From UHGV virus genome UHGV-0143060: a DNA stretch of 38,372 bases; one strand, 5' to 3'. The position numbers and the translations under genes are program-made. The stretch is from a virus. Shown here piece by piece: positions 1,175 to 8,840 of the stretch (its first letter is position 1; each line of letters opens with the position of its first letter). A model generated the notes under the pieces. It did no database searches and was not told the DNA's origin. It saw nothing but the letters and a program-made list of their open reading frames with translations.

Positions 1175-3820
1175 TCAACCATTTAGTGTTAACTTTAATA
1201 ATTTTTCCAGATTATTAATCTTTGATGTGATATTGGCAATATCCTGCTCATGGTGATGATATAATGCGCTCATTGCCAGAAACATTAACTCGTCATAGCG
1301 CACTGATAATTTTCTTCCTGATTCCACAATTAACCTTACTTCACCAGTTTCATACTCTTCTTCCTCTGTGATTTCATCATACTGACCAGACTCTTCATCA
1401 ATTAAAATTTTTCTGGTCACATTTCTTGTTGCATAGACTTTCTCATACTCATCATCCCACTCTTCATAGCAAAGAACCCCATAAGAAAATGCATCAAGCC
1501 CCTCAGATTCAAAGATGGATTGTATATCTTGCGCAATTACACCGATATGCTCACGCGCTGACAAGCCTTTTTCTTTTACAGCATCCTTCATTCTGAATTT
1601 TTTTATCAGCGGGTAAATAGCCATTCCAACCCGTAGTTCTGCATCAGATAATGAAGCTTCATCCTGCTTGTAATTTCTGTCGCTGGTTACAATGGGGCTA
1701 TTATTTATATACAGGTTTCTGACAGTATTCGACTGTGTACCAATATCATAAAGATTTGAACCTGATGGTCGAAAATGACCTAATTCTGTTAATACCCATC
1801 TGTCACGCAAGCCGTCAATCTCTCCCATGGTTCCAAAGTAGAAAGCAACCGGGATATTGTCTCCGGAAGGATTACCTCTTGTGACGCATTTAATGTGTGC
1901 GCATTGCACAGCCTTACTACCTGTATCACCGGCCCATACATGAGTACCCAATACATCCCCTGTCTGCAGAGCTCCAAAATTATCAGTTGATACAACACCA
2001 GAGCGAGACTTATACATTATTGCTCTTGGTCCTTCTGCGGTGTCTGACTGATGCCGGGAAACCCATGAGTTGCTCATCCCTTCCGTGCCGTTTGAAGCTA
2101 ACTGCATTCCACCAGTAATTCCGCCATCAAGAAACAATATAGGGTTATCCCGGTTAGTTTGAATACCCTTTCTTGTTGGCCAAACTGTCCAGTGAAAAGT
2201 ATCATTGTATTCCCTTACTCCATATTTGAACTCCGGGGAGCCAGAACTATGAAGACCAGTATTACTGGATACAGAACGGCTTGCTTTGCTTTGCACTACC
2301 GAACCAGACCTGCCTATATCAAACAGATATACATTTTTCCCGTTCTCAGCAACTCCTTTATATGTGCATATTCCCAGCGTTAAAACATACCCACTCTCCG
2401 TTCTAATTACTGTTAGGGACTCAGGCTCTTTATAAACAGGAGTTCCTGTACTGTCAGATTTTGCTTCATCATCACCAACAGTTGAAATATCTACTCGCTC
2501 AATAAACCTGCCTGTTAAGTCAAATACGTAAATATAATTAGTCATGCCAACATACGTATGTGACTCAAGTATGTAAATGTATGCCCCATCGCAAGCAATT
2601 GATTGGGTAAATGCTTCTTGTGATGGTTTTTGATAGCTAAACTCAACTAAATAATCATCACTATAATCAGTTTTATGAGATCTGTTATTCCACATGCTGA
2701 CTATGTCGAAAACACGAACCGTGCAGGTAATTCCATCCGATGAAATTTTCTTGGCAAGTAGATAGTTTTCACAACTTGATACAGTTGGAGTAGAGCTTGC
2801 GCTCATTCCATCATAGGGGAACAACTTCCAGGTGATAAAACCTTCAGATACCCCGTTGGTTGTCCCTGTGTAACTCAATATATTTTCCATCGAAATACAT
2901 TGATTGGCGGCATCGGTTCCATAAGGCTTCGATGTCCACAGCACGACAGTACCATCAGGATTATGATGCAATCCAAGCCCCTGATGCCCAAGTTCAGTAG
3001 AACGGGTTCTGTCGTATCTTCCTAGTTCACCAGAATTCGTCACGTCAAAGGCATTAATGCAATAACCGTATGCTGTGGTAGATGATAAAGTAAAAATCTT
3101 GTCGTTAATTTCATCATAACAACACCCCTGAATGACCGCATATAAACCACCCGCACCTTCAGTTCTGCGCAACGTGTGTCTGGTGTTATATACTTTTGGC
3201 ATTCCGGAAAATATCAATGGCTCTCTTTTATCTCTTAATTTAAGATCACCAATCGCAATTCGTTTACTGCCATCACGAATAAAAGAACCATTTATATAGC
3301 TATTTTCAATAAAACTTTTAGTAACAAAAAATGCTCTTCCACTTAAATCAATAACCCTATTTTTTATATCCATTTCCAACGCGACAAATGCTTCAGTATC
3401 ATCGCTAATCCCATCCCCCTTAGCTCCAAAATAAAGAGGAGACATATTTAGCATATCATTTGATAATACTTTTTGTTTAAACTGATCCGGGTCATACTTC
3501 AGCACATTAGGAAAATAGAACTGCTGTGCACCATACGCATCATAAACAGCCATAGAATGGCCTTGCACGGTAACGAATTTGGCAATCTGTCCGTTATATA
3601 CTGGATACCCTGCGGCATTGATGACGATTGGCTGTGCAACATGAACGTGAGAACCATCTTCGTTCTCTACATAAACCTGAATCTGGTTTTCAGGATTTAC
3701 CGGGTCAGTGTCAATTTTACCGATATAAATTTTGCCATTGGCTACGGCTTTAAAAGAGCGGGCCATAGTGAAGAGTTGCGAAGGCATACTCACTACAACA
3801 TTGGCTGTAATGTCTGTCAT
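1175..3820 (-). CDS. Tailspike: P22 gp9-like head-binding N-terminus, beta-helix/pectate-lyase-like receptor-degrading body, C-terminal S74-type intramolecular chaperone domain
   Basis: First ~110 aa ([34 protein letters not shown]...) match P22 gp9 as recalled; [16 protein letters not shown] motif; C-terminal SDAELR...GVIAQDIQ resembles endosialidase-type chaperone domains. Confidence 0.85.
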
Positions 3821-3920: not shown

Positions 3921-4823
3921 TCAGTAGTTATGTACTGAAGGAGGTAATTCTTTATTCTTAAGTCTCATCCATGCGGAAAGATTCGTTGGTCCGTCTGGCT
4001 CATTGATATCAACATCTCGTGAGTGATTGATTAAAACGTCTCTCGCTATATCGATAATACGGGAGAACTCATAACCGCAGTCATGACATCTGCCGGAATA
4101 GTTCGATTGAATTTGTTTCAGCGCCGGATACAGTTCGCGGAATAATGCCTGTGAGCGGTTGGCATAATCCCATAGCCATACAAGGCTGTTTGCTTCTTTT
4201 GCAGAAAGCTCGTTGGTTTTCTTCTCTTGTTTGCCGATGAACTCACCTTCAAGCACTACCCTGTGGATGTACTCTACGGCTTGCGGTATCTGAGATGCAT
4301 CAAGCTCTTCAATACTTTCCACATTGAAACGCTGATGAATCATTGCATAAGCTTCTGGGTACATTAGATGCTTTTTGCTGACTAGCATATTTACAGCATC
4401 ACGAAGCGGAGTCCTGTCATCAACAGATGTTTTCTTACGTGCATTTTCTGCCTTTCCCTTTGTCCAGTAGTCATGCAGTACAGTAAAGCATTCTTCCTGG
4501 TACTGAATCAGTTTATCGCGGATGTCAGCTCGAACTTTCTCAGGGTTGATGCTGAACAGCCATCCATTTAACTTCTTCAAAGGAAGGCAGAGTAGCTTAC
4601 GAAGCTTCCCATCAGCGGCAACCATATTCATATGAATACAGTTGAACTTATCTAGTTGTTTCATAAGTTTTTGTTGCTGAGTACCCCAACTCATTCCAAG
4701 GTTTTCAACGATTGGCTTCATCGCAACGTATGCAACTCCGGCAGCCATGGCGGTGATAATTTGCTGACCGTTGAATGGTACGTAAGAGGTGTTCACTGCT
4801 TCTAAAATTGCTATACTATTCAT
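3921..4823 (-). CDS. ant: Antirepressor Ant (immI)
   Basis: [21 protein letters not shown]... resembles P22 Ant; ATG at 4823 has a GGAGA RBS and gives 300 aa; the tabulated ORF starts at an upstream TTG. Confidence 0.8.
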
Positions 4824-4891
4824 GTTGGTTTTTCTCCACGGATTTACTGACAACCGAAGCCCTGACTGTTCCCGCAGTTGGGGCTTCCACT

Positions 4892-5053
4892 TTACGCGCC
4901 AATGCGCCCTTCCTTCTTAAAGCTTTCCATTACTCTCTGATAAATCTCAGAGTTAACAGACCGACCATTCTCTTCCGCCACCTTGCGTACCAAATCCAAT
5001 GCTTCTTTAGGCCACCGCAAATTGAACTGCGGCATCTTGCTCATTCCTTTCAT
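4892..5053 (-). CDS. arc: Arc repressor (53 aa)
   Basis: [53 protein letters not shown] matches P22 Arc nearly exactly; true start is internal to the tabulated ORF. Confidence 0.9.
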
Positions 5054-5067
5054 ATTCACCTCACAAT

Positions 5068-5088
5068 ATAGGTCCACCGTGGACCTAT
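5068..5088. promoter_or_regulatory. Mnt operator (perfect palindrome) in the Pant/Pmnt divergent promoter region
   Basis: ATAGGTCCACCGTGGACCTAT perfect 21-bp palindrome between arc and mnt. Confidence 0.7.
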
Positions 5089-5095
5089 TGAGAAT

Positions 5096-5116
5096 ATAGT
5101 AGAGTGCTTCTATCAT
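5096..5116. promoter_or_regulatory. Arc operator in the Pant/Pmnt region
   Basis: ATAGTAGAGTGCTTCTATCAT with symmetric TAGA/TCTA half-sites. Confidence 0.6.
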
Positions 5117-5143: not shown

Positions 5144-5395
5144 ATGGCTAGAGATGATCCGCACTTTAACTTCCGTATGCCTATGGAAGTAAGGGAGAAA
5201 TTAAAATTCAGGGCGGAGGCGAATGGGAGATCAATGAACTCCGAGTTGTTACAAATCGTCCAAGATGCTCTATCAAAACCATCGCCTGTGACTGGATATC
5301 GTGACGATGCAGAACGACTCGCTGATGAGCAGTCAGATCTTGTTAAGAAGATGGTGTTTGATACGCTGAAGGATTTGTACAAAAAACCCACCTGA
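5144..5395 (+). CDS. mnt: Mnt repressor (83 aa)
   Basis: MARDDPHFNFRMPMEVREKLKFRAEANGRSMNSELLQIVQDAL... matches P22 Mnt. Confidence 0.9.
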   Translation: MARDDPHFNFRMPMEVREKLKFRAEANGRSMNSELLQIVQDALSKPSPVTGYRDDAERLADEQSDLVKKMVFDTLKDLYKKPT

Positions 5396-5410
5396 CGGTG
5401 GGTTTTATTA
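5380..5410. terminator. Bidirectional rho-independent terminator (mnt on +, moron operon on -)
   Basis: ACCCACC-TGAC-GGTGGGT hairpin flanked by an A-run upstream and a T-run downstream. Confidence 0.65.
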
Positions 5411-5827
5411 GTGCTTGTATAGGTTGAACTCTCTATCAAGCCATATAACAAAAAATGTCGATCCAAGACGATAACCAACCATGGCTTTCAAATCATCAAA
5501 TCTAAAAGCCAAGAAATGATCTACGTCTTCCGTTATATGACTGGGGATACCTGCTTTAATTGCACCCCTTGCAATCTTCTCAAATCCAAGCTTATGCCTA
5601 CCTTGCTGCTTAATCTCTGCCCATGTTAGTTGACTTAATCTGTATAATTTATCAGCTAAGCCAGCTTTCTCATCTTTTTGGCATTTCGTTATGCAGTGAG
5701 AGCTTTGGATGTAACAGAATGAAAATTTCGGTTTCTTTTGATCTGAATTCCCCCCTGACTGCGGCCCTAACTTTAACTTACCTGTAGATTCAGCAGGGGG
5801 GATAATCCTTTTAGATTTTCTTGCCAT
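5408..5827 (-). CDS. Uncharacterised 139-aa protein coupled to the Panacea-domain gene; candidate toxin partner (PanT-like)
   Basis: ATG at 5827 lies 4 nt after the upstream stop; K/R-rich N-terminus, CYIQSSHCITKC cluster, C-terminus GYRLGSTFFVIWLDREFNLYKH; AT-rich. The tabulated ORF begins at 5902 and would overlap the upstream gene. Confidence 0.55.
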   Translation of the reverse strand: MARKSKRIIPPAESTGKLKLGPQSGGNSDQKKPKFSFCYIQSSHCITKCQKDEKAGLADKLYRLSQLTWAEIKQQGRHKLGFEKIARGAIKAGIPSHITEDVDHFLAFRFDDLKAMVGYRLGSTFFVIWLDREFNLYKH

Positions 5828-5831
5828 CTCG

Positions 5832-6275
5832 TTAGTTAATCCGAGTTGCAAAGTACTCTGCCATCTCCTTAGAGCTAATTTCAGAACCACCAACACCCTC
5901 AATATAGTTTGATCTCCATGGTGACTCTTCGTGTGTCATGTTCCTCAGTTTCCAAGCAGAAAATTGCCCAAAAACATCCCAGACTTCTTCTAATAGCTCT
6001 AACTGTTCTTCGCTGAATTTTTCAGCATCAAAAGACTCTGGAGAAGGGATAGCGCCATTACCATATTGTTTATAACGGCGATAAAGCTCAGGGACAACAG
6101 GGCCATGCATCCAAGCTTCCATCTTATTCTGAAAAAGAGGCTCGCCAAGCAACGCCAATGAAAAACCCTGAGCATAGTAAACAAGCTTTTGTAATTTTAA
6201 ATTAGAGATTGTGTCACCGCTATCCTCGTCACACCGCGACAGGAAGTAGTCGGCGACATCAAAACAAGTAAGCAT
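5832..6275 (-). CDS. Panacea-domain (DUF4065, SocA/PanA-like) protein, putative antitoxin
   Basis: DVADYFL...NLKLQKLVYYAQGFSLALLGEPLFQNKMEAWMHGPVVPELYRRY matches the Panacea core as recalled; GGAGG RBS 7 nt before the ATG at 6275. Confidence 0.7.
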   Translation of the reverse strand: MLTCFDVADYFLSRCDEDSGDTISNLKLQKLVYYAQGFSLALLGEPLFQNKMEAWMHGPVVPELYRRYKQYGNGAIPSPESFDAEKFSEEQLELLEEVWDVFGQFSAWKLRNMTHEESPWRSNYIEGVGGSEISSKEMAEYFATRIN

Positions 6276-6485
6276 GAACACACCTCCATCTTGATAGCCA
6301 CAGCTAAGTATCCAACTATGTCAAATGTCATTTAATACTATAACAAAGCTATCAGCAATCCTTCGGAGGCTAACTTACAACCACTTTAGCGACATGTTTA
6401 AACCATTACGTTTCACATTTACTGCATTTTCGCCGAAGTTACCTATAAGGTAATGTCACATTTCCTGCAAGTTTCATGCAATGTT

Positions 6486-6508
6486 GAAAAGTGAGCTATT
6501 CACTTTTC
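6486..6508. other. Perfect 9-bp-stem inverted repeat in the divergent intergenic region
   Basis: GAAAAGTGA-GCTAT-TCACTTTTC; no flanking T-run. Confidence 0.4.
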
Positions 6509-6649
6509 TATGACACCAAACACCAAAAATAGCACTTTTTGCTAAATCATTCGTCCAAGTTGTGGATGGTTTGTCGTTGACACGTTTTCACACACCACTC
6601 CACCAATAAAGTATCATCTGGTATCCTGCGAAAAACTAAGGAGGTTGGT

Positions 6650-6979
6650 GTGTTAGAAATAGTAGTACTCGCTCTTGGGATATCCTGTTGCGTACTATAT
6701 GCAGGGTTAGCTGCCCTCAAGAAACAGGTTAAGGAATTAGATCGCTCACATGAAATTGATACAAAAATTGCGCGATTAACTGAAGAGAATAAACACTTAA
6801 AAAATTCCATAAGGGCACTAACTGATGACAACTACAAACTGTCCCATGCATTGGCTAAGTGGGAAATAGTAAGTTATGAAAGAATGACCGACATGATTTT
6901 TTCGTCTTATATGGCTACAAAATCTCCTGAAACATCAGGAAAAGCAATAATTGCAGCCATTGAAAAGAGAATTAAATAG
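6650..6979 (+). CDS. Membrane-anchored coiled-coil protein (moron; function unknown)
   Basis: AAGGAGG RBS then GTG; hydrophobic N-terminal helix LEIVVLALGISCCVLYAGLAAL followed by a heptad-like charged region; transcribed against the late operon. Confidence 0.55.
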   Translation: MLEIVVLALGISCCVLYAGLAALKKQVKELDRSHEIDTKIARLTEENKHLKNSIRALTDDNYKLSHALAKWEIVSYERMTDMIFSSYMATKSPETSGKAIIAAIEKRIK

Positions 6980-6998: not shown

Positions 6999-8840
6999 CT
7001 ACTGCCTGGTAGCTTCGTTAGTTAGGAGAGGGCGAACGGCGTTAGCAGCCTGATTTAACGCTCGCTCATATGCCGGAGTTCCAGGCTTGACGTTTGCAAG
7101 GCGGAGAAGCATGTTTCTTGCTGCTTTGGACTCATACAAGCGCATCATTGCACCAAAACCAGCCTCAAGCCCCATTGATACGCCAAGGGTCGCAGTTGCG
7201 CCAATCGTCCTTATCCTGTTGGCTTGCGATTGCCCCGTCTGAGTTACTACATTTGCGGTGTCTGACCTTGCTGTTTGCTGTAGAACTTCATGAAGAGCAT
7301 CAAGCTCTTTCATGTGCTTTCCAGAAAAAATAGTGTTGTAAATTTCACCGCCTGACTGAGATTTCAGCTTATTAACTTCAGTGATGAACTTGGCTGGAGA
7401 GTCCCCGGCCTTTTCCGCTATTTTGCTGACGTAAGCTGCACGCATAGCATCTTTCCCCTTATCATCCAGTGCGCTCCAGATTCGTTTCACGTCAGATGGT
7501 TTTCTGCTTAATACAACGGTATTTATAAGTTCAGGACTGGCTTCACTGCTTGCCTTGTTGAGCTTGTTGGCAATGTTTTTATTAAGCACCTTATTATAAA
7601 CGTTTGCATAATCGGAATTTGCTTTAAGGTATTTTGCTGCGTCTGACGCACCGAGGTTTTTTGCAACTGCGTTACGAAGGTCTTTTGACATTGCATTCTC
7701 TACCATATTGGTAGCTGCTTTTGCCTGGTTGGGGAAGACCATAGCATCTCCCTGAACATTAGATCTAAATGCTGTTCTGTGCTGACGCAAGAGATCAAAC
7801 GTAACATCCAAATCAGTTGCAGGGTTTGCTAATTCTTCACGTAGGTTACGCAAGGATGTAAGCAGGCTTTGATTGGCAGACGTCCCAAGCCGTTCCTGTC
7901 TTGCGATCGCTGTATTCAGAGCATTCATGGTATTTGTGGTATCAACTGCGGCATTACCCATTTTATTGGTGACGTCATTGATAACAGCGCCAGCGGCATC
8001 CTTCCGCCCCCTTAACGTGGTGGTCAGAGATTTCACCACATCATCAGGGTTGTACTCACCAAAACGGTCAAAATAATTGCTTACCAGCTTACTACGCGTT
8101 GCATATTGCTCCGCTCGCTTTGAGCCTGTCCCGAGCAAAGCCCCCTCGGCATCCTGAGTAAGGCCGCGAGTGAAAGCATTTTTCGGCGGGATAACATCAG
8201 ATGTCATTGGTGTCACGCCCATCGATTCTGATGTGGCAATTTTCTTCGCTACTTCTGGCGCAATATCACCTTTTATAGCCGTTATTCCACGCCCTATTCC
8301 CTTTGCTGCTGCGGAAAGAACCCCCTGAGCGGCAAGGTTAACTCCGGCATTTTTTGCTGCATTTTGTGCGAAATCGCCTTTCTGATTTGCGGCCTCTGCC
8401 AGTGATCCAATAGCCATGCTTCCTGCCGTTCCAACTCCTGGAACTAAATACCCGCCAATTGTTTCTCCAGTTTGCGCATAAGGGTCTGTCGGTCGATCGA
8501 CTGGACGATAGACATCATCCAATACTTTTGGACCACCAAGCCCCTGACTGATTGCATTAATCAGACTTGCGCCACCCTGCAATACGTCAAATGGTATGTT
8601 TACCAGACCACGACCAGCCTGTTCTGCAATTTGCCCTGCACTTTGACCACCAGTGAGCCAATCGCCAGCTTGTTGCATCAATGATGGTTCTTCACGTGCT
8701 GGTTCATTGCTATCCTGGCTGACAGTTTGTTGCTGAACAGACTGTCCAGCAAAATACTCATCAATGGCAGATCCAATATCTTCCGTGCTCGTACCATCAG
8801 GGAAGGTAAATGTCTTACCGTTTGCAGTTACTTTCATCAT
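6999..8840 (-). CDS. Ejection protein, P22 gp16-like
   Basis: 613 aa in the P22 gene-16 position; stop/start overlap with upstream gene. Confidence 0.75.

Follow-up and report, generated by a model that had tools for sequence, protein, structure and literature searches.

What is the function of a pair of small genes lodged between the repressor gene mnt and the ejection gene gp16 of a P22-like prophage, and is the second of these genes a toxin? The pair lies in a viral genome (UHGV-0143060), which we analyzed as a single stretch of 38,372 nt, hereafter called the window. panA (5832-6275; stop codon, 5832-5834) and T1 (5408-5827) are both on the minus strand, in that order, with 4 nt (5828-5831) separating the panA stop from the ATG of T1; they encode proteins of 147 and 139 amino acids (aa). 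The panA-T1 pair turned out to be an already known, published, and annotated module that is functionally unsolved.

The locus corresponds to immI in a prophage of the P22-like (Lederbergvirus) group. The minus-strand tailspike (1175-3820), ant (3921-4853; Pfam P22_AR_N and P22_AR_C), and arc (4892-5116) genes are followed by plus-strand mnt (5144-5395; Pfam Arc and Repressor_Mnt), T1, panA, a leader and divergent regulatory region upstream of panA (6276-6652, minus strand), ORF109 (6650-6979, plus strand; 109 aa), and gp16 (6999-8840, minus strand), with gp20 as a further ejection gene. The original prediction of two tightly coupled minus-strand genes between mnt and gp16 agrees with these coordinates, and the peptides quoted in it are present in the proteins. 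Its end point of 6281 does not hold; this is an alternative GTG without usable Shine-Dalgarno spacing, and the start is instead ATG 6275, preceded at a distance of 7 nt by GGAGG (6283-6287). The prediction also assigned the pair to the slot equivalent to sieA, an assignment that holds at the level of the region but misses the precise slot. In P22, sieA follows gene 16 on the opposite strand; after a gap and then a terminator come orf59a, mnt, arc, ant, and gene 9. Here, it is ORF109 that occupies the strict sieA position, and the panA-T1 pair sits in the orf59a slot adjoining mnt. ORF109, a member of phrog_8100 with a hydrophobic helix at its N terminus as well as a coiled coil, showed no similarity to SieA (E=0.31). 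The two genes of the pair read in the same direction as the late operon and lie within a regulatory region. In E. coli GPEC859, the RefSeq PGAP annotation places exactly two genes at the locus, of 147 and 139 aa.

Megablast boundaries against Salmonella phage vB_SemP_Emek and Escherichia phage phiv205-1, to which the cassette DNA is 99.4-99.5% identical, put the whole extent of the mobile cassette at 5378-6659, and its ends are also set by its absence from other P22-like phages that carry mnt and ORF109. PanA is identical to Emek YP_006560565.1 at 145/147 positions, and T1 is identical at 138/139 positions to residues 23-161 of Emek YP_006560566.1. The GC content of the cassette is lower than that of the window (40.3% versus 46.9%), so the AT-rich island of the original prediction is real but only modest. 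What was borne out of the wider interpretation is that the two genes form a conserved toxin-antitoxin (TA)-like moron, located in immI of this P22-like prophage. Among 5,426 complete E. coli RefSeq genomes, 111 contained a match to the cassette, which covered at least 80% of its length in 48. A diverged allele is found at the same locus in phages EC.P3 and E212 (71% aa identity for PanA and 51% for T1, against 95-100% identity of the flanks in EC.P3). The cassette ends are conserved and the coding interior has diverged, T1 faster than PanA: in EC.P3 the terminator end (5377-5416) is 95% conserved, the upstream noncoding block at 6248-6647 is 85-100% identical in a sliding comparison, and the distal 260 bp upstream of panA are 97.7-99.3% identical across all four cassette-bearing phages. 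Conserved ends around a diverging interior would fit cassette exchange or diversifying selection, as at defense hot spots. Genes outside the cassette vary between these phages too. Both genes are under purifying selection, with pN/pS values of 0.24-0.45 against the diverged copies at a pS of about 0.8; pN/pS is given instead of dN/dS as synonymous sites are saturated between T1 and its EC.P3 counterpart. Both ORFs are real genes, as these values and the size and constant length of the T1 family (see below) show.

A bidirectional intrinsic terminator, AAAACCCACCGTCAGGTGGGTTTTTT, at 5384-5407 serves both T1 (minus strand) and the convergent mnt (plus strand); its hairpin, AAAACCCACC-GTCA-GGTGGGTTTTTT, holds the mnt stop codon in its loop. 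Although a simple terminator scan did not pick up this hairpin, a rho-independent terminator is annotated at the equivalent place in phage Emek, and the terminator that the original prediction had drawn as a boundary of the pair can be retained. The sequence at the T1 start junction offers only GAG, with no strong Shine-Dalgarno motif, so translational coupling of T1 to panA is likely; the two genes are also cotranscribed. Upstream of panA are a candidate extended -10 element, TGTTATAGT (6337-6345), and TTGACA (6319-6324); since a consensus scan of 6276-6652 returned no promoter, the promoter assignment here is one that we infer. The conserved 370-bp region upstream of panA had no Rfam match and folded with z-scores of -1.4 and -1.9, and a structured RNA at this place is therefore not supported.

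That the upstream protein carries a Panacea domain, as had been recognized from its letters, was confirmed by profile search: PanA matched Pfam PF13274 (SocA_Panacea) with an E value of 1.8e-24 and 87.3 bits (cutoff, 25.7) over profile positions 1-112 of 113. The Panacea/DUF4065 domain stands alone in this protein, with no extra domain. The NCBIfam SocA_antitoxin model was also matched (E=7e-20), at a score of 71 bits that is far under the equivalog cutoff of 190. No match to PanA was found in PADLOC. RefSeq names PanA a "Panacea domain-containing protein" and T1 a "hypothetical protein."

The partner had been put forward as a possibly new toxin type. This cannot be upheld: Kurata et al. (2022; PNAS 119:e2102212119, PMC8832971), who defined Panacea, listed the Emek pair in their Dataset S1 under toxin cluster T1, with A|T as the order, a reciprocity of 4|5, and the flag "Phage," and their Table S1 gives "mRNase" as the predicted mode of action of T1. 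Cluster T1 accounts for at least 217 rows of that data set, which holds 1,268 predicted pairs overall, and its reciprocity, among the rows listed, is mostly 4-5/5 (PMC8832971). T1 appears to be the most frequent, that is, the largest, family of Panacea partners. When the Emek T1 protein and its E. coli MOD1 homologue WP_077635758.1 were expressed from pBAD33 in E. coli, both were scored "not toxic," and neutralization was entered as "n/a" for both pairs; several other predicted PanT partners likewise failed validation (PMC8832971). These two near-identical proteins are the only members of the family for which we found published tests. The original prediction had held that a nontoxic downstream ORF would count against it, and formally this is what is in print, for forms of 161 and 147 aa to which we return below. 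We found no later literature characterizing T1 or PanAT defense, and the T1 and PanA accessions are absent from the NetFlax supplements.

What kind of protein, then, is T1? A first search collected relatives in 182 clusters at the 90% level, and a profile search (E≤1e-3) extended these to 1,555 representatives at the 50% clustering level, drawn from Proteobacteria, Cyanobacteria, Acidobacteria, and Desulfovibrionia. Length is constant in the family, the best 150 of the 1,555 being nearly all 130-146 aa long. Neither T1 nor any of 42 relatives matched a Pfam family, models of RelE/ParE, YafQ, HigB, Gp49, and other named families included. Sequence searches with T1 found no PDB chain and no match to RelE, YoeB, or YafQ, and alignment of the family profile by hhalign to E. 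coli YafQ and YoeB (the YafQ sequence being confirmed against the PDB) was insignificant. Two other leads were discarded. The NCBIfam model MAG6450 was hit below threshold by 40/43 members (best E, 1.8e-6), but in the literature its name is merely a Mycoplasma locus tag, which gives no usable assignment; matches to Caskin-2 were due to chance.

Structure prediction took us further. An AlphaFold2 model of T1, built on a 43-sequence alignment, is confident (mean pLDDT, 87). Residues 1-30 are basic and predicted to be disordered, the N-terminal tail having a pLDDT of 57, and the core runs in the order beta-alpha-alpha-beta-beta-beta-beta, which in the model is the RelE/BECR alpha/beta fold. The fold search that had been proposed for the 139-aa protein was less decisive: the top Foldseek matches in the PDB were consistently members of the RelE family but were weak (E≥0.057), and a viral fold library returned no match to the model. 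Among 260 sequences, G81 and E83 are invariant (100%), W69 and G118 are conserved at 99%, R109, D131, Y137, and H139 at 98%, R120 at 90%, and H78 at 88%. These residues fall into three groups, one in the loop that precedes strand 1 of the core, one on the central strands, and one at the very C terminus. The active-site residues of YoeB are E46, R65, H83, and Y84, and those of YafQ are H50, H63, D67, and H87; by secondary-structure order, the conserved residues of T1 would match the active-site positions of the RelE family. The "CYIQSSHCITKC cluster" that the original prediction had pointed out is not conserved. C45 alone reaches about 90% among 43 sequences, no cysteine reaches 80% among 260, and a metal site formed by the cysteines was rejected on that ground.

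The sole significant profile match that we found for T1 came from PADLOC. Residues 31-135 of T1 align with positions 178-279 (of 284) of the NsnC model (PDLC03891; E=5.9e-6), and all 43 members examined (43/43) match the C-terminal part of this model, with a best E value of 1.7e-10. Menshen (NsnABC) is an antiphage system whose third gene encodes NsnC. [quoted passage not shown] That paper makes no mention of Panacea or DUF4065 (PMC12065111). T1 shares with PB-BECR1 both the YafQ-like BECR fold and homology to the NsnC C terminus, and H78, R109, and H139 of T1 may correspond to the H-R-H triad. Unlike NsnC, T1 stands alone, without the N-terminal inPIN domain; the genes for NsnA (ParB-DUF262) and NsnB (ABC ATPase) are absent from its vicinity, where the neighbors are PanA, mnt, and ORF109, and its partner is PanA. 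For these reasons T1 is a stand-alone relative of the NsnC effector domain and not a Menshen system. We did not find this homology in published work, and it is new here.

Taken with the layout of the cassette, these properties lead us to favor, tentatively and at somewhat less than an even chance, the view that panA-T1 encodes a latent or conditionally toxic RNase under the control of PanA and that it acts as a prophage defense or addiction module. The cassette would then be a 1.3-kb moron in the P22-like immI region, a copy of the catalogued PanA-PanT "T1" module. The acidic PanA would be translated first and the basic T1 next, by coupling, 4 nt downstream. By analogy with standalone Panacea antitoxins, PanA may bind T1 directly and so control its RNase activity, T1 itself being a latent or conditional RNase and not a constitutive poison. 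T1 would become harmful only if PanA were lost or sensed a trigger, for instance a second infecting phage; active T1 might then cleave mRNA, tRNA, or rRNA, and translation would be halted. In this way the pair could serve the prophage as an abortive-infection, exclusion, or addiction device. Standalone Panacea proteins are reported to neutralize their partners by direct binding, and a sensor role has been proposed for them (Ernits et al. 2023, PMC10440598). The isoelectric points of the two proteins are complementary (T1, 9.7; PanA, 4.6), and the lack of toxicity of T1 when it is expressed alone fits a latent effector. It must be said that the published result fits a protein that is not a toxin at all equally well, that PanA is missing from PADLOC and T1 from the named families, and that we infer the catalytic residues by mapping. 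A toxin or abortive-infection role of T1 is plausible but unproven.

A more specific form of the latent-RNase view can be ventured, although we regard it as rather doubtful. T1 may be a latent stand-alone PB-BECR1 RNase effector, and not a classical toxin, with PanA as its infection sensor; two genes would then suffice for a minimal antiphage system that is activated by a trigger, carried and diversified by P22-like prophages via cassette exchange between conserved flanks. If true, this would account for the harmlessness of T1 when it is expressed alone.

How much weight the published lack of toxicity can bear depends on what was expressed. The overlaps between panA and the "toxin" recorded in Dataset S1 are -62 nt for Emek and -20 nt for MOD1 (PMC8832971). 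In the window, TTG codons that match these overlaps are found at 5893 (the Emek form) and 5851 (the MOD1 form), so the tested constructs were misannotated forms of 161 and 147 aa, with 22 and 8 additional N-terminal residues, respectively. The alignment of the T1 family shows an invariant Met at the start of the 139-aa form, the distant homologues start equivalently (between -8 and +35 nt relative to the end of panA), and these two features together with the PGAP call favor ATG 5827 as the genuine start. This corrected start is likewise new here and was not found in published work. It gives room to a classical type II TA reading, in which T1 is a constitutive RelE-like mRNA interferase, PanA is its labile neutralizer, and the reported lack of toxicity is an artifact of the start codon. 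The 22-aa extension, VVLKLALRRWQSTLQLGLTNE, is hydrophobic, and the fold, the conserved E/R/H/Y residues, the pairing of a basic toxin with an acidic antitoxin, and the antitoxin-first gene order are all typical of such systems. However, two independent constructs were nontoxic, one of them with only 8 extra residues, and the assay host, E. coli, is the natural host. Moreover, the extension is attached to the tail that is predicted to be disordered and should leave the fold undisturbed. Given where the extension lies in the model, and given that one of the two is only 8 residues long, we do not think that a start artifact is the more likely explanation for the lack of toxicity, and we hold the classical reading to be possible but on the unlikely side.

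The same negative result, and the failure of several other predicted PanT partners in validation, could be taken at face value. T1 might be nontoxic and bind or process RNA, or might be a degenerate RelE fold, and might work with PanA in a different role for the prophage, for example in regulating immI or phage transcripts; the orientation of the pair, co-directional with the late operon and inside a regulatory region, would agree with this. The near-invariant polar residues of T1 are, however, of a catalytic type, and T1 is homologous to the predicted nuclease effector of a defense system. The distribution of the pair argues in the same direction. panA lies directly upstream of T1 in 5/5 of the distant homologues whose contigs we inspected, and the contexts of these five pairs are a prophage (n=3), a type I restriction-modification (R-M) HsdR gene (n=1), and an integrase (n=1). 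In a P2-like prophage of Aeromonas the pair adjoins an antirepressor gene, in a Solidesulfovibrio prophage it adjoins a P22-type portal gene, in a cyanobacterium it adjoins the type I R-M HsdR gene, and in one further genome it adjoins the integrase gene; in an acidobacterial example, panA and T1 overlap by 8 nt. Since the same pair is thus not confined to P22-like phages but is also found in a P2-like prophage, in an R-M neighborhood, and in unrelated phyla, it is not tied to the regulation of immI, and we consider it improbable that T1 is a nontoxin of this kind. That T1 inhibits DNA gyrase in the manner of ParE, and is not an RNase, strikes us as highly improbable.

The puzzle, in short, is that what seems to be the largest family of Panacea partners shows no toxicity. 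If a start-codon artifact explains this, T1 simply joins the RelE-like TA toxins as a further example. Otherwise, the T1 family becomes a candidate trigger-dependent RNase defense module, and it would allow the sensor role that has been proposed for Panacea to be tested in a simple setting. The homology to Menshen NsnC and the corrected 139-aa start provide concrete handles for a retest.

Among known systems, the type VI TA system SocAB of Caulobacter crescentus is related to the pair through one partner: SocA was the first member of the Panacea family, and the SocA model matches PanA, but SocA serves SocB as an adaptor to ClpXP, and T1 is unrelated to SocB. T1 also has features that set it apart from the RelE superfamily. 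It has no detectable sequence similarity to the toxins of RelBE, YefM-YoeB, DinJ-YafQ, or HigBA, it carries an additional 30-aa disordered basic N terminus and an insertion at residues 87-103, and its partner is a globular Panacea domain in place of RelB, YefM, DinJ, or HigA. The pair most resembles the PanATs of Kurata et al. (2022), with which it shares a Panacea gene scoring above the Pfam gathering threshold and an adjacent small partner gene. Those that have been validated include the PanT RNases of P. moraviensis and B. ruminantium and the membrane PanT of E. coli STEC O31, and type II behavior and complex formation were shown for validated pairs (PMC8832971). The validated toxins are MazF-like, membrane, toxSAS, Fic/Doc, or cyclase proteins, whereas a RelE/BECR fold is predicted for T1; in E. 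coli, toxicity is recorded for these toxins but not for T1. Closest of all is the T1 pair of Emek and MOD1-EC5558, which consists of essentially the same genes at the same position in a Lederbergvirus immI region and which differs from the pair described here in its gene models, the published ones being 22 or 8 aa longer from an upstream TTG and ours starting at ATG 5827.

In the panA-T1 cassette, where panA encodes a standalone Panacea protein and T1 its RelE-fold partner, panA is preceded by 370 bp of non-coding DNA (6282-6652). Across the phages Emek, phiv205-1, EC.P3 and E212, the distal 260 bp of this region is 97.7 to 99.3% identical, and in EC.P3 and E212 the block is conserved despite divergence of the neighboring coding sequences, whose products share only 71% (PanA) and 51% (T1) identity with those of the window. 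The block is restricted to phages with the panA-T1 cassette, and the gene flanking it on the side away from panA is different in each phage. An Rfam search of the region returned no match, its RNA folding z-scores were only -1.4 and -1.9, and no consensus promoter was found within it. The conserved block may serve as a handle for recombination or have a regulatory role.

When the cassette of the window (5408-6275) was compared with the diverged allele of EC.P3 (L006, 2031-2902), T1 was found to have diverged further than PanA (51 and 71% amino acid identity and pN of 0.34 and 0.20, respectively). Nearly all of T1 residues 1 to 32, at the N terminus, differ between the two alleles, while the candidate catalytic residues are retained. 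Three more distant PanA-T1 pairs lie in mobile-element or defense-island settings: the cyanobacterial pair (L007, 1480-3976) adjoins a type I restriction HsdR gene, that of Aeromonas (L005) sits within a P2-like prophage with an antirepressor alongside, and that of Solidesulfovibrio (L009) has a P22-type portal gene alongside.

At its left end, the cassette boundary (ca. 5378) falls inside the 3′ end of mnt, because, in the terminator common to mnt and T1 (5384-5407), both the loop and one of the two arms are made of the final mnt codons (AAA AAA CCC ACC TGA). On the other side, the exact P22 sieA position, adjoining gp16, is held by ORF109 (6650-6979, plus strand), which has a GTG start with a strong AAGGAGG ahead of it. 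Its product combines an N-terminal transmembrane-like helix with a coiled coil and belongs to phrog_8100, a family of unknown function; no similarity to SieA was detected (E = 0.31). Emek and EC.P3 share the 5′ leader of ORF109 but have other genes following it at this position. ORF109 is a candidate superinfection-exclusion moron.

Elsewhere, the window contains a full-length match to the sar antisense RNA (Rfam RF00262; 4824-4891, plus strand; 91.5 bits versus a gathering score of 43) between arc and ant, the latter being the gene that sar regulates in P22. The tailspike (1175-3820, minus strand) is 881 aa long, whereas the P22 gp9 gene is 2004 nt (ca. 667 aa), and the protein body differs; since, in addition, the 5′ part of the tailspike gene is low in GC (36 to 39% around 3000-3600), this suggests that the receptor-binding module of the tailspike has been swapped.
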